From an uncultured Clostridium sp. (GTDB taxonomy: Bacteria; Bacillota_I; Bacilli_A; RF39; UBA660), in assembly GCA_964649245.1 (NCBI GenBank), contig CAZYOS010000002.1:1-55132 (forward strand): DNA of 55,132 nt. The letters are read 5' to 3'. Shown piece after piece: positions 16,216-31,636 of the stretch; the stretch's first letter is position 1, and each line of letters opens with the position of its first letter. The notes under the pieces were generated by a model. That model searched no databases. It saw nothing but the letters and a program-made list of their open reading frames with translations, and was not told the DNA's origin. The translations under genes and the position numbers were made by a program.

Positions 16216-17325
16216 CTATTCTAAATTATTAGTTATTTTCAACATATCTTTTCTATATTTTTTAAAATATTTTTTAAATATAGCTTCAATTCTATTTTCT
16301 CTCTTAATTTTTTCTCCATAAGCAAGTTTAAATTCTTTATTAATAGATTTTTTAAATTTAAATTCATCTATTTCATCATTACTATCTACATAATCTTTTA
16401 TAGCTTTAGAAATAACATATTCACTATAAGATTTCTTTTTAGTTCCCTTATCCTCTTTTGAATTAAGAACTAAATAATCAATTAGGAAAGCCTGATCCAT
16501 GTTATCCTTAACTTCACCCGTAATATCATAATTATTATCTTCATTAACTTCTTCTTTAGCATTAACATTATATCTTTCAATAAATTCCCATAATTCTAAT
16601 GCCTTTTTGAAATCATTATTTTTAAGAATAACATTAGTTTTTCTTATTGGAGATTTAACAAATACTATATTAGCAGAAGCAAGTTCTTTAAAAAATGCAC
16701 TATGCATAAAGTCAGCAATTATCAATTGAATTTTTTCTAATCTTTGATCAACTGTTAAGCCGGAGCCATTTACCGTTAGATCCTCAAATACATTACTTTC
16801 CATATTCAAATTAATTTTAACTATTTCTTTACCAAGTTTAGTTTCAGAATTATAATTATATTGTTTATTAACATTTGAACTTGATCCACCAGTCATAAGC
16901 TCTTTTCTTTTAGCAATAAACATTGAAAGATTCATAAGTAGCGTATATATAAATCTATTTTCATATATATCATAACTTTCTTCTTTATTTATGTTTAATA
17001 CTTTAGAAGGTGTAATAGTATCTTCTACTGGATCATATTTTTGTATAAAATTTGTATGAGTAGCTAAATGTACAACACTCTCTTGTGTTAATTTTTTTGC
17101 CTTTTCAACATTAACTACCTCTTCTTCTTGCTGAATAAACTTTTTTGGATTTCTTACAATGTTATCTAAACTAGGAATACATTCCTCAATCTTATCAATC
17201 CAACTATAATCAAATTGAACTTTTTTTTGACTATCATGCATTAATAATTTAGAATTAGCATTATCGATAAACTCATTTTTTGTTTTTTCATCAGCTCTAT
17301 CAATTAATCTATTTATTTTTTCCAT
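16216..17325 (-). CDS. DUF2357 / McrC-N-terminal-like partner of the McrB-like GTPase (paralog 1); no nuclease motif seen by eye
   Basis: RBS AGGTGA, 7 nt after the upstream gene. It carries the motif YDIYENRFIYTL (compare the tpENRF motif of DUF2357 proteins) and SPIRKTNVILKNNDFKKALELWEFI. It is about 55-60% identical to the 26475-27569 product by eye. Confidence 0.5.
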   Translation of the reverse strand: MEKINRLIDRADEKTKNEFIDNANSKLLMHDSQKKVQFDYSWIDKIEECIPSLDNIVRNPKKFIQQEEEVVNVEKAKKLTQESVVHLATHTNFIQKYDPVEDTITPSKVLNINKEESYDIYENRFIYTLLMNLSMFIAKRKELMTGGSSSNVNKQYNYNSETKLGKEIVKINLNMESNVFEDLTVNGSGLTVDQRLEKIQLIIADFMHSAFFKELASANIVFVKSPIRKTNVILKNNDFKKALELWEFIERYNVNAKEEVNEDNNYDITGEVKDNMDQAFLIDYLVLNSKEDKGTKKKSYSEYVISKAIKDYVDSNDEIDEFKFKKSINKEFKLAYGEKIKRENRIEAIFKKYFKKYRKDMLKITNNLE

Positions 17326-17332
17326 AACTCAC

Positions 17333-18907
17333 CTACATTAATTTCTTAAGTCTTTCTAAATATGCTTTACATTCATTCATATTTTCTTTTCCAAACTCTG
17401 TATTTAAGTATGAAATATATCCATCAATTTCATCTCTAATAAATGAAAGATTTAATTGTTCAAATTTTCTTAATACTTTTTTACACAATATATAATCAAA
17501 TCCATCTATTTCTTTTCCACCACAGCCAACGTATACAGGAACGAATTCCTTAATATGTTTAACAATTCTGTTACCAAAAGCAAGTCTAAAGTGTTCAATA
17601 ACATAATCATCCATTTTTTCTAGTTTATCAAGAATTTCTTGACTAACTGGATGCTCAGCTTTAGCTTCATCAAATTTACTTTCAAGATATTTACTGCTTA
17701 TTTCTAATTGATCAGTAGGAGGAGCATCAAATGGCACACCTTTTTCATTTATATCTATTGGCATTGCACGGTCGTAAACCTTATCAGTTACCATAAATGT
17801 TGAATCATCATTATTTATTGTTCCAATATACCACATATTATCAGGTATCTTTAATTTACCTTTTTCTATTTTAATTGGATCATTTGGCCAAACATTAGGT
17901 ACTAGGTCTATAATCCACTCATCTCTACTAGGCATTTCAAGTATAGACAACATTTCTGCAAAATAATATTCAACACGAGCTATATTCATTTCATCTAAAA
18001 TTGTTAAATAAACTATATCTTTATATTTTGCTTCATACATTTTACTTAAAACTTCTGTTTCGTTAAACTTTTTAGTAAATTCGTTAAAGAATCCAAATAG
18101 TTCTGTCCTATCTCTCCATGATGGCTGTACTGAAGCAATTACTGCATCGTTTTTAGTAAATTTACCCCAAGCATATGGAAGAGAAGTTTTACCTGTACCA
18201 GAGATACCTTGTAAAATAACTAATCTAGTAGCACCTAAAGCTGATACAAATAGTCTAATAATATCAATTCTATAATATAATCTCATTTTTGAAGCAGAAA
18301 ACAATCTAAACTGTTCACATAATTCTTCAAGAGTAAATTTATTATTAAAGTTAGGTGGCTTATATCCCTCCATTGCAATATCAATTTGGGTAAGTTTATA
18401 GAATCTACTTTTTTCTCTATCAGCAGAACTAACAGCAGATTCTTCTTTCTTTTCACCAGTTCCAGCATTTTCTTTATCTTCAGCTACATTCTCAGGTAAT
18501 GCTTCTGTAGCACTTACTCCAGGTTGCAATCCAATTTGGCTTACTTTCATAGCAAGTATATCTTCTTTTTCTTGAGTTAATTTATAGACGGCTTGATTTA
18601 AATCACCTATTTCTTGTAATAATGATTCTTGCTCAACTAAAGTTTTTCTTATTCTTATATATTTTCTTACTAAAAGCACTATCATAAGTATTATCATTGC
18701 AAGTATTATTAAAAACACTAAAATAACTAATCCAACTACTACCCAAGCAGGACCAGATATTTCGCTTTTATATCCATTAACAATATTAAAATATGCTTTA
18801 AAATTAAACATATCATATAAACCTAATCCTATGTTTTTAAAGATTCTTATTAAACCATTAAAAAATTGGGACATAAAGTCAAATAGAAATCTTATAAAAA
18901 AATTCAT
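17333..18907 (-). CDS. Membrane-anchored McrB-family AAA+ GTPase (paralog 1), 524 aa
   Basis: The start is re-set to the ATG at 18907 (RBS AGGAG, downstream of the predicted promoter). An N-terminal Phe/Gly-rich amphipathic segment is followed by one TM helix (AWVVVGLVILVFLIILAMIILMIVLLV-RKYIRIRK, positive-inside) and a coiled coil. The AAA+ domain has Walker A LQGISGTGKTSL, Walker B/McrB motif ILDEMNIARVEYYFAEMLS and YIGTINNDDSTFMVTDKVYDRA (compare McrB MNTADRS..D.ALRRRF). Confidence 0.7.
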   Translation of the reverse strand: MNFFIRFLFDFMSQFFNGLIRIFKNIGLGLYDMFNFKAYFNIVNGYKSEISGPAWVVVGLVILVFLIILAMIILMIVLLVRKYIRIRKTLVEQESLLQEIGDLNQAVYKLTQEKEDILAMKVSQIGLQPGVSATEALPENVAEDKENAGTGEKKEESAVSSADREKSRFYKLTQIDIAMEGYKPPNFNNKFTLEELCEQFRLFSASKMRLYYRIDIIRLFVSALGATRLVILQGISGTGKTSLPYAWGKFTKNDAVIASVQPSWRDRTELFGFFNEFTKKFNETEVLSKMYEAKYKDIVYLTILDEMNIARVEYYFAEMLSILEMPSRDEWIIDLVPNVWPNDPIKIEKGKLKIPDNMWYIGTINNDDSTFMVTDKVYDRAMPIDINEKGVPFDAPPTDQLEISSKYLESKFDEAKAEHPVSQEILDKLEKMDDYVIEHFRLAFGNRIVKHIKEFVPVYVGCGGKEIDGFDYILCKKVLRKFEQLNLSFIRDEIDGYISYLNTEFGKENMNECKAYLERLKKLM

Positions 18908-18948
18908 AAAAATACTCCTATTATACCTATTATTCAGTATACATACTA

Positions 18949-18977
18949 AGTATATCATTATTCGACATTATTCTCAA
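18949..18977 (-). promoter_or_regulatory. SigmaA-like promoter with extended -10 (TTGAGA-17-TGaTATACT)
   Basis: The -35 TTGAGA is at 18977-18972, the spacer is 17 nt, and TGa plus TATACT is at 18957-18949. It lies just downstream of the sipW-2 terminator and upstream of the RBS/ATG at 18907. Confidence 0.45.
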
Positions 18978-20764: not shown

Positions 20765-21463
20765 TTATTTGTCTTCTGCTAAAGACAAAACCATTTTCAT
20801 TTCACCACCGAGTATGGCATCTACACATTCAAAGTCATTTCCTTCCATAAAAATAACTATTGTATATTTATCCACCTCATTAGGTATAATATTTTTCCTC
20901 TGTTTTACAAAAGCTTCGGTATTACTGGGAAAAGGTATGGTTCCTTCTTCCGTTTCACCAGTTCTTGCACTTTTTTTTGCATAAACCTCTTTTGGTTCAT
21001 CATTAGTGTACATGATGATTCGAATAGCATCATCTACATTCTTAATAACTGAAAGTATATCAAGCGACATTACATAATTAGTCGTTTCGGTACCTATATT
21101 TTTGACAAAGAATGTATAAGCCATATAATTATTTCCATTATGCTCACCTTCATAATCGGTAGCAATATTTAATGGAAGCCAACTCTCAGTTATATTGTCC
21201 ATATAATCTAAAGCAGTCGCTTCAAGTCTCAAAGGAGTTTCTTTAAAATCACTAGTGGCAGACATAACTATATGCTTATTAGCACTTAAGTTAGGATCTA
21301 AAGTAATTGTGAAATTTCCTTTTTGATTAACAACATAAAGTACACAATATAATGTTGATAAGAATAGTAATAAAAACAGAAAAATTATAAAACATACTCT
21401 TCCAAACATATTTCTTCTGTATACTTTCTTTGCTGTTGTATTAGCAAACAATTTATCTTTCAT
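20765..21463 (-). CDS. Membrane-anchored (uncleaved-type TM) member of the W-x-EG-x-D-x-C beta-sandwich family
   Basis: RBS GGAGG and an ATGA overlap with the upstream gene. The TM helix VCFIIFLFLLLFLSTLYCVLYVV lacks an AWF motif. Further motifs are YTFFVKNIGTETTNYVMSLDI, DDAIRIIMYT and the C-terminal IVIFMEGNDFECVDAILGGEMKMVLSLA. Confidence 0.55.
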   Translation of the reverse strand: MKDKLFANTTAKKVYRRNMFGRVCFIIFLFLLLFLSTLYCVLYVVNQKGNFTITLDPNLSANKHIVMSATSDFKETPLRLEATALDYMDNITESWLPLNIATDYEGEHNGNNYMAYTFFVKNIGTETTNYVMSLDILSVIKNVDDAIRIIMYTNDEPKEVYAKKSARTGETEEGTIPFPSNTEAFVKQRKNIIPNEVDKYTIVIFMEGNDFECVDAILGGEMKMVLSLAEDK

Positions 21464-25041: not shown

Positions 25042-25062
25042 AAAAAAAGGAGTAAAACTCCT
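25042..25062 (-). terminator. Short hairpin plus T-run overlapping the stop of the 460-aa gene
   Basis: On the minus strand AGGAG-TTTTA-CTCCT is followed by TTTTTTTG. Confidence 0.4.
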
Positions 25063-26443
25063 AATCAACTGAATATACTTGAAAATAACCAGAAAACGAT
25101 TTGCCTTGATCAAAATTTTGATTTTCATTTAGACCTTTAACTTTAAAAGTAAAAGTATATTCTTGTGTTGAAGTTGGGCCTATTACAACTGTATCAGCAA
25201 TAAATGATGTATTTCTTGGTACCATAGTATAATCCTGTGAATAGCCTTCTCCTGTTGATTCAATCTTATATAGGAAATTATCACTAGTGAAAGTATAATT
25301 AGTAACTACCATTTCAATTTTATATCTTACATACTCTGAAGACCTGTTTGTAATTGTTATCTTCTTAGTTGCATATTTAGTAACATTACCAGTCTGATCT
25401 TCAGGAAACAAATTATCAATAACAATTTGTTTGGAATCAATAAAATCTATAATAAACTCTGCAGTTGCTATATCTGCTTGATTATTTCCTATCGCAGTGG
25501 AAGAACCAGTATTGTTTTCAATAACAGCTATATTTTTAACGCAATTAAGATCACAGACTCCATCTCCATCTGTATCACAATGAAGATTACATACTCCATT
25601 ATTATTTGTATCAAAATTCAAGTCAGCATTTCCATCATTGTCATTATCAATATACATGTTAGCCTTTCCATCACCATTTAAATCTATGTTGGTGTCTGGC
25701 CATCCATCCCCATTAACATCACAATTCAAATCACAGACTCCATCATTGTCTAAGTCTTGATTAATTAAATTAAAGTCTGCTTTTCCATCTCCAGTCGTAT
25801 CCACATTAAATACAGCTTTTTGATTTCCTTTATAATCAATATTTACATATGGTTTTTTTCCATCATTAGAAATATTAATATTTTCCTTATCATCTTTATC
25901 GGTATCAATATTTAAATCAGCAATTCCGTCATTATCTATATCTAAATTTAAATGTGCTATTGATAGGTATCTTAATGTGACATAAGTTGAACCAAGTGCA
26001 ATGAAAGTAAACAATCCAAGCAATATAATTATTAATATTAAACTTCCTTTTTTGTTTGTTTCGAAACTAAAGTTCATTTTATTGCCATCTTTAGTTACAA
26101 CTAATTTATATGGTAATCTTAAATTATTATCATCAGGATCACAACTTAATTTTAAACATTTAATGGCAAGCTTTCTTATTATTGAATAATCAATATCATC
26201 ATAATCTTTATAAAGGTCAGTTAAAACAAGAGCAAATACTCTAGACTGATCTTTTACATCTAGGCCTTCTAACTTATATAAATCAACAGTATTTGATTTA
26301 TATACATCGTCTAGAAATGAATCATCAATAATATATGAATCCGCAGTATTTTCTTTTTTAATTTCTGGTTGTTCAGTAGTAGCAGAATTTTGATTATCAG
26401 AAACTATTTCTTCGGAAATATTATTATTTTCTTCATTACTCAT
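25061..26443 (-). CDS. Bitopic membrane protein: cytoplasmic N-domain, TM, about nine Ca-binding DxDxDG (TSP type-3/dockerin-like) repeats, C-terminal TasA/CalY-like beta-sandwich
   Basis: The start is re-set to the ATG at 26443 (RBS AAAGGAG; MSNEENNN...). The TM helix is SLILIIILLGLFTFIALGSTYV. The repeats read DIDNDGIADLNIDTD...DVNGDGWPDTNIDLNGDGKANMYIDNDNDGNADLNFDTNNNGVCNLHCDTDGDGVCDLNC. The C-terminus reads KITITNRSSEYVRYKIEMVV...NENQNFDQGKSFSGYFQVYSVD. Confidence 0.65.
   Translation of the reverse strand: MSNEENNNISEEIVSDNQNSATTEQPEIKKENTADSYIIDDSFLDDVYKSNTVDLYKLEGLDVKDQSRVFALVLTDLYKDYDDIDYSIIRKLAIKCLKLSCDPDDNNLRLPYKLVVTKDGNKMNFSFETNKKGSLILIIILLGLFTFIALGSTYVTLRYLSIAHLNLDIDNDGIADLNIDTDKDDKENINISNDGKKPYVNIDYKGNQKAVFNVDTTGDGKADFNLINQDLDNDGVCDLNCDVNGDGWPDTNIDLNGDGKANMYIDNDNDGNADLNFDTNNNGVCNLHCDTDGDGVCDLNCVKNIAVIENNTGSSTAIGNNQADIATAEFIIDFIDSKQIVIDNLFPEDQTGNVTKYATKKITITNRSSEYVRYKIEMVVTNYTFTSDNFLYKIESTGEGYSQDYTMVPRNTSFIADTVVIGPTSTQEYTFTFKVKGLNENQNFDQGKSFSGYFQVYSVD
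25538..25948 (-). repeat. Coding tandem array of Asp/Asn/Gly-rich Ca-binding-loop repeats (period about 11-13 aa)
   Basis: The D-x-[DN]-x-D-G-x-x-D motif recurs about nine times. Paired Cys residues (GVCDLNC, GVCNLHC) resemble thrombospondin type-3 repeats. Confidence 0.7.
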
Positions 26444-26474
26444 TTTAACTCCTTTCATTTATTTCTGTATTTTA

Positions 26475-27586: not shown

Positions 27587-29107
27587 TTATATATTTTTTT
27601 TAAGGTTTAATAAATATTTTACACACTCTTTCATATTTCCATCGCCAAATGTTTGGTTTAAGAAATCAATAAATCCATCAACTTCATTTCTTATATATGA
27701 CATATTTAGTTGTTCAAATTTTCTTAATATTTTGTGACATACCAAGTAATCAACAGCTACTATTTCACTACCACCACATGCAACATATACTGGAATAAAC
27801 TCTCTCATTTGTTGTAAAATACGATTACCAAAAGATAATCTGAAATGATCAATAACATAATCGTCCATTTTAGAAATTTTATCAAGAATATCTTGACTCA
27901 ATGGTTTAGATTTTTGTGCTTCATCAAATAATTGTTCTAAATATTCTGATGTAATATGAAGTTTTTCAGTTTTAGGGGCATCAAATTTTGGTGCTTTGTC
28001 ATTAATATCTATAGGTAAAGCACGATCATAAACTTTATCAGTTACCATGAATGTTGAATCATCATTATTTATTGTTCCTATATACCACATGTTTTTTGGT
28101 ATTTTAAACTTGCCATCAATAAGCTTTTTGGGATCGGTTGGCCAAGGATTAGCAACTAAATCAATAACCCACTCATTATAACTAGGCATTTCCATAATAG
28201 ACAACATCTCAGCAAAATAGTACTCAACACGGGCTATATTCATTTCATCTAAAATAGAAATATATATTTTATCATTATAAGATGCTTCATACATTTTACT
28301 TAATAATTCAGTTTCATTAAATTTTTTAGTAAATTCATTAAAATATCCAAATAATTCAGCTCTATCTCTCCATGACGGTTGAACAGGGGCTATTACAGAT
28401 TCATTATCTAAAAAACTACCTGCAGCATATGCAAGAGAAGTTTTACCTGTACCAGAAATACCTTGTAAAATTATCAATCTATTAGAAGCAAATGCAGAAA
28501 TAAATAATCTGATTAAATCAATATTATAAAAAAGCTTTAATTCAGATGCAGCATAATTTCTAAAAGAATCGCATAATTCATTCAATTTTATTGTGCTATT
28601 AGTTGGTTCTGGAACGTAATTTTCCCATTTTTCGTCAATTCTACTTAATTTATAAAATCTTTCATCATGCTCATGCTCTAATTCTTCAATTTCTTCTTTT
28701 TCTTTAATTTCTCCATTTTCATCAGTTGAAGGAATTTCACCATTCGCCATTGCTAAATATTTTTCATTTTCTTTTTTTAATTTTATATTTTCATAATTAA
28801 GATTTTCATTTTCTTCAAGAAGCATTTCATGTTCATGAGACTTTCTTCTGACTCTTACTATTCTTTTAAATATTTTAATAATAATAAATATTAATATAGC
28901 TACTAAAGCGACTAAACAAATAATAGCAAGAACAACTATAAATACTTTTGCCCCAGTTAAATCACTTTTGTATTTTCCTATAATATCTATATAATTAATT
29001 ACATTAAACATCTGTAATAATCCTTTAAAGACTCCTTCAAAAATGCCTATAAAGCCTTTAAAGAAAGGTGCTAGAAATTCTAAGAAAAATTTTTCCACAT
29101 TACCCAT
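27587..29107 (-). CDS. Membrane-anchored McrB-family AAA+ GTPase (paralog 2), 506 aa
   Basis: RBS GGAGG. The N-terminus MGNVEKFFLEFLAPFFKGFIGIF is followed by a TM helix (VFIVVLAIICLVALVAILIFIIIKIF-KRIVRVRRK) and a coiled coil. The AAA+ domain has Walker A LQGISGTGKTSL, ILDEMNIARVEYYFAEMLS and YIGTINNDDSTFMVTDKVYDRA. The AAA+ region is about 75% identical to paralog 1 by eye. Confidence 0.7.
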   Translation of the reverse strand: MGNVEKFFLEFLAPFFKGFIGIFEGVFKGLLQMFNVINYIDIIGKYKSDLTGAKVFIVVLAIICLVALVAILIFIIIKIFKRIVRVRRKSHEHEMLLEENENLNYENIKLKKENEKYLAMANGEIPSTDENGEIKEKEEIEELEHEHDERFYKLSRIDEKWENYVPEPTNSTIKLNELCDSFRNYAASELKLFYNIDLIRLFISAFASNRLIILQGISGTGKTSLAYAAGSFLDNESVIAPVQPSWRDRAELFGYFNEFTKKFNETELLSKMYEASYNDKIYISILDEMNIARVEYYFAEMLSIMEMPSYNEWVIDLVANPWPTDPKKLIDGKFKIPKNMWYIGTINNDDSTFMVTDKVYDRALPIDINDKAPKFDAPKTEKLHITSEYLEQLFDEAQKSKPLSQDILDKISKMDDYVIDHFRLSFGNRILQQMREFIPVYVACGGSEIVAVDYLVCHKILRKFEQLNMSYIRNEVDGFIDFLNQTFGDGNMKECVKYLLNLKKNI

Positions 29108-30242
29108 TATTTACCTCCATAAAATCTAATTTTGTAAAAATTAAATCATCCTCTTTGTATATTTTTTCATCACATTTTTTAATATACTTAATCTTTTTTG
29201 ATTCAATATTTTCTTTATATTTAGTAATATATTCTTCGTTTGCAATTAAAATAACATCATTACTAAATTTTATGTTACTTACATCTTCTAATTTATTACA
29301 ATCAATAAATATTTTAATACCATATGACATTATTTTATTTAATTCTTCACATTCTTCATATTCATCACTATCAATTATTAATGATATGTGACTACATATA
29401 TAACGGTTTTTTAAAGGTTTAATGAAAGTGGATATCATAGTTTTCTTTTTATAAAAATTCTTATTTACTTTAAAAGCCATACAAATTCTCTGATCATATA
29501 ATATGCATTTTAATAATGATACTATGGCTAATTCATAAGATATTAAAATAAATGTATTATCTATTCCTATCTTGTTATTAACTTTTTCAATATCGCTTTT
29601 TTGAAATGTTTTTATATCATCTAATATATAATTATATTTTACCTGATACAATCTATTATTTTCATTTAATAATAAGTAGTCATTATAGGAACTATTATTA
29701 ATAGATTTCCTTAAATATGATCTTAATCTCTTATCATCCTTTGTATTTGTTTTAACTAAATCCAATAACTTATTCATATGTATTTTAGTCTTGTCATCTT
29801 TTTTATAAATAAAATTTTGTGATACTTTTCCCGCAATACTAATAATAAAATCTGATTTATTAGGTACAATAACAATAGCATCTCTTAATCTATTTATTAA
29901 AAAAGCAAAATAGATAATATATGATAAATATATTATCTCAATATTTTTATTTTTAATATCCAGTTTCTCTTTTTCATAATGTTCTATTACACATTGTAAT
30001 ATAATTTTAATATCATTATCTGTTTCAGAGTCAAACTTATAATGTTTATTTACTATACTATAATCATTAGAAAGCATCATATAATACTTGCTATAATAAA
30101 TATCTAATATCTTTTTTACAGTACTTAATTTACTAGGTATTATTACATCTAATTTGTATTGAAAAACAATTAATATTTCATTAATATAATCAACTAATTC
30201 AGACTTCTTTTTAGAAAAGTATTTATCTAATACACTAGTCAT
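29100..30242 (-). CDS. Cytoplasmic hypothetical protein (380 aa), paralog of 21460-22659, translationally coupled to the McrB-like gene
   Basis: RBS AAGGAG. There is no TM or signal. An 8-nt overlap joins it to the downstream McrB-like gene. The C-terminal part (GIKIFIDCNKLEDVSNIKFSNDVILIAN) is loosely reminiscent of a degenerate EAL/TIM-barrel segment, but this is very uncertain. Confidence 0.55.
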   Translation of the reverse strand: MTSVLDKYFSKKKSELVDYINEILIVFQYKLDVIIPSKLSTVKKILDIYYSKYYMMLSNDYSIVNKHYKFDSETDNDIKIILQCVIEHYEKEKLDIKNKNIEIIYLSYIIYFAFLINRLRDAIVIVPNKSDFIISIAGKVSQNFIYKKDDKTKIHMNKLLDLVKTNTKDDKRLRSYLRKSINNSSYNDYLLLNENNRLYQVKYNYILDDIKTFQKSDIEKVNNKIGIDNTFILISYELAIVSLLKCILYDQRICMAFKVNKNFYKKKTMISTFIKPLKNRYICSHISLIIDSDEYEECEELNKIMSYGIKIFIDCNKLEDVSNIKFSNDVILIANEEYITKYKENIESKKIKYIKKCDEKIYKEDDLIFTKLDFMEVNNG

Positions 30243-30310: not shown

Positions 30311-30330
30311 AAAGATAGTTGCCTATCTTT
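30311..30330 (-). terminator. AT-rich hairpin plus U-rich tail abutting the sipW-3 stop codon
   Basis: On the minus strand AAAGATAG-GCAA-CTATCTTT is followed by TATTTTAT. Confidence 0.4.
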
Positions 30331-30950
30331 TATATATTTCCATTTTTATTTCTTAAACTTAACATTTTATTTTTCAAAAGTAATAGTTTTAATATCTTAT
30401 AAATATCATAAGATATAATTGCAAGTGATGGTATCATAACAGCTATAATCCAGCCGCCCTTACTAGCTAAAAAGAACTGCAATCTTCCAAGTTGAGGAAA
30501 AACTGCTACCACTTTACCAACTACATTATCAGGAGATACTTTTTCATTATCTGCTTTTTGATTAGCATCTCCTTTAGTTTGAAAAACCAGTCCTCCTAAA
30601 TCAGGAACATTCAGTACATCTGCTACTCTATGCGTAATCGGAGTACCCCCAAAAAAATCATTTGTAGAAAAGAAAGTAATAACATCTCCTACTTTTATTT
30701 TAGAAGGATCATCTTGCCTATATGTTAACACTACATCATATACTGCTATATTCGGTGTCATACTTGGACTAATTATAGTATACAATCCAACTAGTGGCTT
30801 GTGTCCTTTTGCTTCTGCAGCCTTTCCTGATACGACATAAAATACAAGAAATAATCCTATTATAACTAAAAGCCCTACAATAAAGTATCCAACTGTTTTA
30901 GAAATAATATTTAGTATTTTTTTAATTTTTTCTTTTTTTGTTAGTTCCAT
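30330..30950 (-). CDS. sipW: Archaeal/ER-type signal peptidase I (SipW-like) paralog 3
   Basis: RBS AGGTGA. It has an N-terminal TM helix, the Ser box IISPSMTPNIAVYDVVL, the His box TPITHRV, box E TKGDANQKAD and a C-terminal TM helix. Confidence 0.8.
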   Translation of the reverse strand: MELTKKEKIKKILNIISKTVGYFIVGLLVIIGLFLVFYVVSGKAAEAKGHKPLVGLYTIISPSMTPNIAVYDVVLTYRQDDPSKIKVGDVITFFSTNDFFGGTPITHRVADVLNVPDLGGLVFQTKGDANQKADNEKVSPDNVVGKVVAVFPQLGRLQFFLASKGGWIIAVMIPSLAIISYDIYKILKLLLLKNKMLSLRNKNGNI

Positions 30951-31545: not shown

Positions 31546-31569
31546 AAAAAAAGTAGACATTTGTCTACT
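31546..31569 (-). terminator. Intrinsic terminator after the 216-aa TasA-like gene
   Basis: On the minus strand AGTAGAC-AAAT-GTCTACT is followed by TTTTTTATAT. It is preceded by two further hairpins (TTCAAC..GTTGAA and the GC-rich palindrome TATGTGCGCGCATATA). Confidence 0.6.
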
Positions 31570-31636
31570 TGTGTTTACAATTATATATGCGCGCACATAT
31601 TCAACGGATAGAGTTGAATAACATACAATATAATTA

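Follow-up and report, generated by a model that had tools for sequence, protein, structure and literature searches.

A bitopic protein with a TasA-like ectodomain and a TilS-like cytoplasmic domain as a candidate membrane anchor in the operon of a McrB-like GTPase

The protein scaffold of Bacillus biofilms consists mainly of fibres of the TasA type, and related fibres occur in clostridia and archaea. TasA-type fibres assemble by N-terminal donor-strand exchange, with TapA providing a first strand (PMC9674648). Their attachment to the cell is not well understood: TapA explains it in part only, and for the BsaA fibres of Clostridium perfringens, which are linked to the cell through the cytoplasmic membrane, the anchor is unknown (PMC11580942). 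A second system of interest here is the CoCoPALM class, which was named in Bell et al. 2024 with its description deferred; no follow-up paper on it was found, and the supplements of Bell et al. hold no text on the class. Here, we analyze the last gene of a four-gene core of the CoCoPALM kind, located at 25061-26443 on the minus strand of a DNA stretch of 55,132 nucleotides from an uncultured Clostridium sp. (GCA_964649245.1, contig CAZYOS010000002.1), to which we refer as the window. The gene encodes a protein of 460 amino acids (aa) in which a cytoplasmic domain, a single membrane helix, a tandem array of DxDxDG loops and a C-terminal beta-sandwich follow each other. Our preferred, yet tentative, reading is that of a membrane-tethered anchor or adaptor of the TasA superfamily that is coupled to the GTPase module encoded upstream.

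The pattern is not due to chance: at least 386 database proteins have the same architecture, which is kept in 120 of the 120 best homologues and in 85 loci, and relatives were found in at least 472 species-representative genomes. The carriers listed are metagenome-assembled genomes labelled uncultured Bacilli, Tenericutes, Mollicutes, Erysipelotrichaceae or Clostridium, together with third-party assemblies labelled Muribaculaceae. In the following, conservation of repeats and motifs is counted over 78 aligned relatives, cleavage-site positions over 80 orthologs and neighbourhoods (radius 10 kb) over 85 loci that were annotated with hidden Markov models (HMMs) built from the window proteins. 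Structures were predicted as single chains with AlphaFold2 (AF2), and confidence is given as the predicted local distance difference test (pLDDT). An earlier sequence-only reading of this DNA had proposed a bitopic protein that joins a cytoplasmic domain, calcium-binding repeats of the thrombospondin (TSP) type 3 and a TasA-like domain.

Domain architecture and membrane topology

The C-terminal beta-sandwich is homologous to the mature domains of the short SipW-type subunits encoded nearby. hhalign aligned it with the 216-aa neighbour (97.4%, E 1.2e-11) and with the 177-aa neighbour (93.3%, E 2.8e-7), and a profile-profile comparison with 18 short subunits of related loci reached 99.4% (E 2.6e-21, 136 columns). 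The N-terminus of the short subunits is of the SipW type (G-A-T-F-A-[YWF]-F), and they carry a C-terminal Q-N-x-x-Q-G-K motif, which recurs at the end of the 460-aa protein as Q-N-x-D-Q-G-K-x-F-x-G; the C-terminal ...QNFDQGKSFSGYFQVYSVD motif (also given as QNFDQGKSFSGYFQV) is conserved throughout the family. Pfam Peptidase_M73 (PF12389) matches 6 of the 18 short subunits (best E 4.2e-5), the 216-aa protein lies exactly at the threshold, and the model is carried by some of the 557 database relatives of these subunits. AF2 predicts nine strands with a pLDDT of about 77-97, mostly about 90. Foldseek searches with a model containing the domain returned many generic sandwiches at E about 1e-3, with the archaeal TasA-like bundling pilin 7ueg at rank 10 and the thread subunit 7pnb at rank 31. 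Searches of PDB sequences with the family, small-subunit and N-domain profiles gave chance matches only (filamin, a heat-shock protein, GCN4 zippers), and scans of the protein itself with Pfam and NCBIfam yielded no usable assignment. Placement in the TasA superfamily is thus supported at the sequence level by transitive homology and shared motifs, not by a direct match, and the TasA-like end proposed earlier holds in this transitive sense.

The sole hydrophobic segment of the protein precedes the ectodomain, with a Kyte-Doolittle peak at about residues 133-157 and an AF2 helix spanning residues 131-162. Over the 78 members, the 17 residues before the helix contain on average 5.0 Lys and Arg compared to 1.8 after it, and the net charge changes from +3.2 to -1.6. 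Ahead of the folded N-domain there is no signal peptide, and since a folded domain of 90 residues lacks a preceding signal, it should lie inside the cell. By these features the protein is predicted to be single-pass with the N-terminus inside and the C-terminus outside, in agreement with the bitopic topology of the sequence-only reading.

The outer end of this helix resembles a TasA precursor as well. Its family consensus is [GAS]-[AS]-[TS]-Y-[SA]-[GA]-[FVI]-x-Y, and the A/S, T/S and Y columns are kept in 78, 77 and 76 of the 78 members. Of 85 family members 43 contain the seven-residue pattern, as do 22 of 44 TasA-like subunits, compared to only 3 among the 1027 remaining proteins from these loci. 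In TasA the cleavage site reads TWA↓AFND, and Phe at P2' is characteristic of SipW substrates (PMC10269814). The TasA donor strand covers residues 28-38, starts right at the cleavage site and has F29 and I32 as key hydrophobics (PMC9674648). Hydrophobic residues occupy the same positions, +2 and +5, in the family studied here, and several orthologs (the L001 clade) read GATYS-AFNYIK, to be compared with the mature TasA start AFND. The motif appears to copy the SipW cleavage site of TasA, so that the ectodomain might be released. Both this motif and the donor-strand-like segment that follows it had been overlooked in the earlier reading.

Release after processing by SipW is the main and serious rival to a permanent anchor, even if we judge it somewhat unlikely. 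According to this explanation the protein would be a secreted nucleator or spacer comparable to TapA. SipW would cut after G-A-T-Y-[SA], the new N-terminus [AG]-[FVI]-x-Y-[LI]... would become the donor strand, and the calcium stalk with the acceptor sandwich would join or nucleate fibres; the TilS-like domain and the helix would be a leftover membrane leader, and the McrBC-like module may gate processing. The correspondence to the P3-P4' site of TasA, most obvious in the L001 clade, speaks for this explanation, as do the high specificity of the motif, the start of the TasA donor strand directly at the cut and the three SipW-type peptidases of the window. In addition, 65 of the 80 orthologs have S, A or T at position -1, and nearly all have T or S at position -3. 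However, in the window ortholog and its own clade position -1 is V, I or F, and such residues are poor at -1 for type I signal peptidases. AF2 continues the helix past the motif at high confidence, a conserved and well-folded cytoplasmic domain of 90 residues is unexpected in a mere leader, and 74 of the 85 loci have no SipW gene within 10 kb. Cleavage seems plausible for much of the family and doubtful for the window ortholog, because its -1 residue is Val-155.

The cytoplasmic domain is remotely homologous to CTD1, the substrate-binding domain of the tRNA(Ile)-lysidine synthetase TilS. Three lines of evidence, fold, profile search and hhalign, agree on this relationship, which had escaped the sequence-only reading and is new. 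In the AF2 model the domain consists of a helix-strand-helix-helix arrangement and a three-stranded sheet, with Q66, Y78, D105, L110-P111 and K118 as conserved residues. Foldseek with the full model was swamped by generic beta-sandwiches, and the TilS match emerged only from a second model lacking the C-domain; with this model TilS structures took ranks 1-4 and 8 (2e21, 3a2k, 1wy5, 1ni5) at a Foldseek probability of 0.98-1.00, a root-mean-square deviation of 2.7-4.9 Å over 83-96 columns and E values down to 0.0075. A profile of the N-domain searched against 1.84 billion proteins found 73 representatives only, almost all from the family itself, and the matches outside the family were bona fide TilS or TilS fragments (E 1.4e-6 to 8e-4). 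In full-length TilS enzymes the match falls on residues about 236-328. Pfam confirms the PP-loop and TilS_C domains in the matched proteins and, in the TilS protein P0290, places the TilS substrate-binding domain at 256-311, under the match; hhalign of the N-domain profile with P0290 gave 94.1% (E 1.3e-7, TilS residues 254-325). The aligned motifs are L..F..L...Q....IL...Y and x-L-P-x-x-L-x-V-x-K....L-x-F. Pfam TilS (PF09179) had no direct match in the protein or the 78 members, and Pfam detected no PP-loop domain in the protein. In TilS, CTD1 sits near the tRNA anticodon stem (PMC11947777).

The DxDxDG repeat array

Between the helix and the sandwich lie 11 tandem units with a period of 12 residues, except for one unit of 11 and one of 15. 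Seven of them match D/N-x-D/N-x-D/N-G-x-x-D/N strictly (starting at residues 168, 230, 242, 254, 266, 278 and 290) and four are degenerate (180, 192, 203 and 215), so that the "about nine" loops counted in the sequence-only reading were a fair estimate. The consensus over the 78 relatives is D91%-[TIL]-[DN]-G-D-G-[KIV]-[A/C/P]-D-[ILF]-N67%-[I/C/L], with D1, D5, G6, D9 and N11 as the conserved positions. The paired Cys residues noted before are three C-x3-C pairs at 237/241, 285/289 and 297/301, which belong to units 6, 10 and 11 and always occupy unit positions 8 and 12. They are conserved in 75-78 of the 78 relatives, and a core N-C-D-x-N-G-D-G-W-P is invariant or nearly so. A Zn or Fe site built from two of the C-x3-C pairs was considered as a possible role of these cysteines. 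In AF2 models the region has a pLDDT of 89-97 (in 10-residue blocks) and, by DSSP, no helices in residues 166-301; isolated beta-bridges at unit positions 10 and 12 recur every 12 residues. These models suggest a regular stack with an Asn/hydrophobic ladder and not an irregular TSP "wire".

The 136 residues of the array include 31 Asp and 26 Asn and sum to a net charge of -24. The array very probably needs Ca2+ to offset so much negative charge. The acidic tandem array described earlier is present behind the helix, with a putative role in calcium binding, while its assignment to TSP type-3 or COMP modules did not hold: the Pfam scan proposed with that assignment came out negative. TSP_3 (PF02412), TSP3_bac (PF18884), Dockerin_1 (PF00404), EF-hand and Excalibur had no match in the protein at E <= 10. 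All five also had no match at E <= 10 in the excised repeat region or in relatives with 15-22 repeats, which are an apt test because a repeat model would accumulate score there; in the 78 aligned relatives the first three had none at E <= 1, and EF-hand had none either. Sub-threshold Pfam matches in the relatives were instead to FG-GAP (13/78, best E 0.0023), DUF6802 (29/78) and the low-complexity SGP. Foldseek against the PDB found no TSP, COMP or dockerin fold with models containing or lacking the C-domain, a search that is weak on irregular loops, and no solved structure resembling the repeat rod; the 12-residue beta-helix of the Tenebrio antifreeze protein type was not matched either.

That the repeats are true TSP type-3/COMP or dockerin modules acquired by the protein is, given these results, extremely improbable. 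The DxDxDGxxD core and the paired Cys are the only common features. Apart from the missing HMM and fold matches, the strict period of 12 residues and the Cys at positions 8 and 12 differ from TSP3, in which the Cys spacing is D-x-x-D-x-C-P. Dockerin type I was rejected in particular, since it had no HMM match and the loops here are followed by no helix. We therefore regard the repeats as an unclassified DxDxDG array.

The length of the putative stalk varies widely. Family members have 392-703 aa and 2-22 strict loops, and in the 703-aa relative P0276 the units are expanded into a far longer Cys-rich array (...CQYNCDLDGDNKCDWNCYAPGKKPSDGPQYC...) that is followed by a Thr-rich linker.

Operon context and a model of membrane coupling

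The gene boundaries given by the sequence-only reading are correct. The longest open reading frame (ORF) covers 25061..26458 (465 aa), and its ATG at 26458 is overlapped by the Shine-Dalgarno sequence AAAGGAG in the upstream stretch ...AAATGAAAGGAGTTAAAATGAGT.... The true start codon is the ATG at 26443, in accordance with the Shine-Dalgarno spacing and with the start of the database copy P0001. From the stop codon of the DUF2357 gene the gap is 16 nt to the longest ORF and 31 nt to the ATG at 26443. A terminator-like hairpin sits directly on the stop codon, and the gene therefore closes the transcription unit. The order 380-aa cytoplasmic protein, membrane-anchored McrB-like GTPase, DUF2357 protein and bitopic protein was found in 58 of 61 informative loci, namely those with more than 4.8 kb of upstream sequence, which bears out the proposed co-occurrence with the membrane GTPase in one operon. 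In a few orthologs, those of L013 and L037 (also L068 and L070), upstream sequence is available, yet neither a McrB-like nor a DUF2357 gene could be detected in it. Apparently, the protein can exist without the GTPase module. In L037 and L038 a TasA-like gene directly follows the gene.

In the anchor model that we tentatively prefer, the protein would be a complete TasA-superfamily subunit, with SipW-type signal-like helix, donor-strand-like segment and acceptor beta-sandwich, that has been rebuilt twice. In one step, the TilS-CTD1-like domain would have been placed ahead of the signal helix, turning it into an N-in signal-anchor that keeps the TilS-like domain flat on the inner face of the membrane. 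In the other, about 11 Asp/Asn-rich DxDxDG loops with three Cys pairs would have been inserted between helix and sandwich; loaded with Ca2+ they could form a rigid stalk that raises the sandwich off the membrane and would be about 5 nm long if the rise is 4.8 Å per unit. The window ortholog would be expected to stay membrane-anchored because Val precedes the would-be cleavage site. The anchored protein might then act as a base or adaptor on which the secreted short TasA-like subunits dock by beta-strand complementation, and large adhesins whose N-terminal handle is TasA-like could dock likewise. On the inner side, the cytoplasmic domain would provide the site of contact with the complex of McrB-like GTPase and DUF2357 protein, which is tethered to the membrane. 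By analogy, such an anchor would fit the attachment of BsaA fibres to the membrane by an unknown factor.

Several findings weigh against this model. Peptidase_M73 has no direct Pfam match in the protein or its 78 relatives, TasA itself lies outside the top 50 Foldseek matches, and the Foldseek TM-scores are low (0.35 for 7ueg, at most 0.41), like those of carbohydrate-binding modules. The small -1 residue of the 65 orthologs is compatible with cleavage and release. Furthermore, SipW was found within 10 kb in 11 and other TasA-like genes in 25 of the 85 loci; with so few of these neighbours, a point missed in the sequence-only reading, the core operon is not obligatorily placed beside fibre genes.

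A stronger version of the anchor model would make the protein the transmembrane coupler of a TasA-type fibre system driven by nucleotide hydrolysis. The GTPase ring would grip the TilS-like domain and either gate cleavage by SipW or mechanically control the calcium-stiffened anchor. TasA-type fibres are otherwise regarded as self-assembling outside the cell, with no input of energy. We consider this coupling unlikely. In a bolder variant, suggested by analogy, the TilS-derived domain might still bind tRNA or RNA and tie fibre display to the translational state, which would echo the RNA targeting predicted for the sister CoCoNuT systems.

Genes of cell-wall synthesis are recurrent neighbours of the operon. 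Class-B penicillin-binding proteins (PBPs; PBP_dimer/transpeptidase/PASTA) are encoded within 10 kb in 26 of 85 loci, more commonly than SipW. In six loci (L005, L036, L043, L049, L055, L061) the PBP gene begins 42-83 bp after the gene studied here, and in about seven (L050, L057, L062, L063, L065, L071, L085) it immediately precedes the operon, which puts it about 4.8-5.2 kb ahead of the start of this gene. MraY and FtsW are near in 12 loci each, and the linkage with PBP, MraY and FtsW extends across both halves of the family tree. This recurrent linkage could reflect inherited synteny or a functional tie to division and cell-wall synthesis. In the latter case the four-gene module would work with the class-B PBP, MraY and FtsW, and the protein would be an extracellular scaffold similar to FtsL or DivIB whose sandwich binds peptidoglycan or a PBP and not fibres. 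The frequent adjacency and the N-terminus of the GTPase, which Bell et al. called FtsB-like, would agree with such a role. Yet the genomes all come from a single lineage of uncultured Bacilli, and inherited synteny would therefore be enough to account for the linkage; both the C-domain and the helix motif are specifically those of TasA subunits. The window itself is of a fibre-rich type, with three SipW-type peptidases, many TasA-like genes and a divergent YfhO, and has no PBP, MraY or FtsW gene near the gene studied here. We regard a role in division as quite unlikely.

A further possibility is a role as surface sensor in a defence or stress system derived from McrBC, in which the stalk and the sandwich would detect phage, a ligand or a change in Ca2+ and signal via the TilS-like domain to the GTPase. 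This idea draws on the match of the McrB-like partner to the PADLOC phage-defence candidate PDC-M26A (E 4.5e-36), on the prediction of Bell et al. that the sister CoCoNuT systems are an RNA-targeting defence, and on the descent of the N-domain from a tRNA-contacting domain. The PADLOC match is made via the AAA+ core of the GTPase alone, while the bitopic protein, the DUF2357 protein and the 380-aa protein had no match in PADLOC. In many genomes the operon occupies conserved chromosomal sites beside housekeeping envelope genes and not variable islands, and no effector domain was identified. A defence function is in our view very unlikely.

The window holds additional elements of the same kind. 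A second McrB/DUF2357 pair (16216-18958) lacks a paralog of the bitopic protein of its own; the 232-aa membrane-anchored TasA-like protein in this second module (20765-21463, minus strand) was considered as a relative and rejected, as hhalign gave only 4.5%. Upstream of the operon, a terminator-like hairpin with T-run at 31551-31570 (minus strand) comes right after the gene of the 216-aa TasA-like subunit and before that of the 177-aa subunit. Its position is consistent with a higher expression of the 216-aa subunit than of the downstream operon. In related loci, large proteins of 456-877 aa combine a SipW-type signal with a TasA-like N-terminal domain (L017:16949-18319, L031:3610-5658, L050:13067-17775, L059:11491-13059, L063:9878-12511). 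They end alike in ...RP(S/V)xxL....(S/G)GDG(T/S)xxxPYxV, which seems to be a C-terminal surface-protein module, undescribed so far, of this lineage. The coordinates of the features are collected in Table 1.

Table 1. Features of the gene, its product and the neighbouring genes in the window. Residues are numbered on the 460-aa protein starting at 26443.
Feature	Position	Strand	Basis
Whole gene, 460-aa bitopic protein	25061..26443	minus	stop codon 25061-25063; database copy P0001 (460 aa) with same start Met
Shine-Dalgarno AAAGGAG	26449..26455	minus	5 nt upstream of ATG 26443, read directly from sequence
Polar/acidic cytoplasmic leader, predicted disordered, residues 1-36	26336..26443	minus	pLDDT <50; alignment gaps; poorly conserved, length variable
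Folded cytoplasmic alpha/beta domain, residues 37-130	26054..26335	minus	remote homologue of TilS CTD1; AF2 pLDDT about 90
Single transmembrane helix (predicted signal-anchor, N-in), residues 133-155	25979..26047	minus	hydropathy, AF2 helix, positive-inside bias
SipW-type cleavage-site-like motif, then donor-strand-like segment, residues 151-165 (GSTYVTLRYLSIAHL)	25949..25993	minus	outer helix end; column counts, 80 orthologs
11 tandem 12-residue DxDxDG units, residues 166-301	25541..25948	minus	starts 168, 180, 192, 203, 215, 230, 242, 254, 266, 278, 290
Predicted flexible linker, residues 302-328, conserved G313-x-S315...G319-[ND]	25460..25540	minus	pLDDT <50 at 312-328; conservation
Beta-sandwich, residues 329-460	25064..25459	minus	homologous to mature domain of short SipW-type (TasA/camelysin-fringe) subunits
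Terminator-like hairpin AGGAGTTTTACTCCT + T-run	25048..25062	minus	directly on stop codon
DUF2357 (McrC N-domain-like) protein, 364 aa	26475..27569	minus	Pfam PF09823 E 2.1e-9; directly upstream of the gene in 79/85 loci
McrB-like AAA+ GTPase, 506 aa, N-terminal transmembrane helix and coiled coil	27587..29107	minus	NCBIfam McrB E 1.1e-7; PADLOC PDC-M26A E 4.5e-36
Cytoplasmic protein, 380 aa, no assigned fold, first of four-gene core	29100..30242	minus	ORF listing, neighbourhood order
SipW-type signal peptidase, 206 aa, upstream, same direction	30330..30950	minus	NCBIfam TIGR02228 E 1.4e-25; SipW model E 2.3e-24
Two short secreted TasA-like subunits, 177 aa and 216 aa	30958..32287	minus	mature domains homologous to C-domain of the bitopic protein

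Comparison with described systems

Acidic, tandem and extracellular loops of the form D-x-D-x-D-G-x-x-D are known from TSP type-3 repeats, integrin FG-GAP loops, dockerin F-hands and Excalibur, and the repeats described here resemble them in these respects. Cys residues near DxDxDG loops are likewise found in TSP3 and Excalibur. In contrast to these modules, the repeats of the present family have a fixed period of 12 residues in which Asn takes position 11, flanked by hydrophobic residues (10 and 12) that form a beta-bridge ladder in the model; their Cys are at positions 8 and 12, they have no helices, and they match no HMM or fold. The 12-residue DxDxDG/Cys repeat can hence be seen as an unclassified and putative calcium module.

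With CTD1 of TilS (PF09179; PDB 2E21, 3A2K, 1WY5, 1NI5) the N-domain shares both fold and sequence motifs. Unlike TilS, the protein has neither the PP-loop catalytic domain nor CTD2, its domain is fused to a membrane helix, and Pfam TilS does not match it directly. We did not expect to find a domain of a tRNA enzyme re-used at the membrane.

In the four-gene CoCoPALM core, the protein corresponds to the fourth and last gene. The locus has the McrB-like GTPase with its transmembrane/coiled-coil N-terminus and the DUF2357 partner, and signal peptidases are near in the window. Bell et al., however, describe neither the family nor its TasA-like domain, repeats or TilS-like domain. The protein is the only extracellular component of the core, and it therefore offers an obvious handle on the role of this nuclease-less, membrane-bound relative of McrBC.

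The closest parallel is the TasA/TapA/SipW system of Bacillus subtilis (Pfam Peptidase_M73, PMC9674648), together with BsaA. There are clear differences. The protein has a folded cytoplasmic domain ahead of the helix and about 135 residues of DxDxDG/Cys repeats between the strand-like segment and the sandwich; it is possibly uncleaved, has no direct Peptidase_M73 match, and is encoded in a GTPase operon and not in tapA-sipW-tasA. The similarities concern the parts that make a TasA-type subunit. The helix ends in threonine, an aromatic and a small residue, followed by a small and a hydrophobic one, and a short segment of alternating hydrophobic residues sits where the donor strand of TasA lies. 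The C-terminal sandwich is homologous to the SipW-type subunits of the locus and shares their Q-N-x-x-Q-G ending, and SipW genes are present in the window. For the family as a whole, with its wide distribution in uncultured low-GC gut Bacilli, this makes the protein a concrete candidate for a membrane anchor or adaptor, an accessory component like TapA and not a major subunit.

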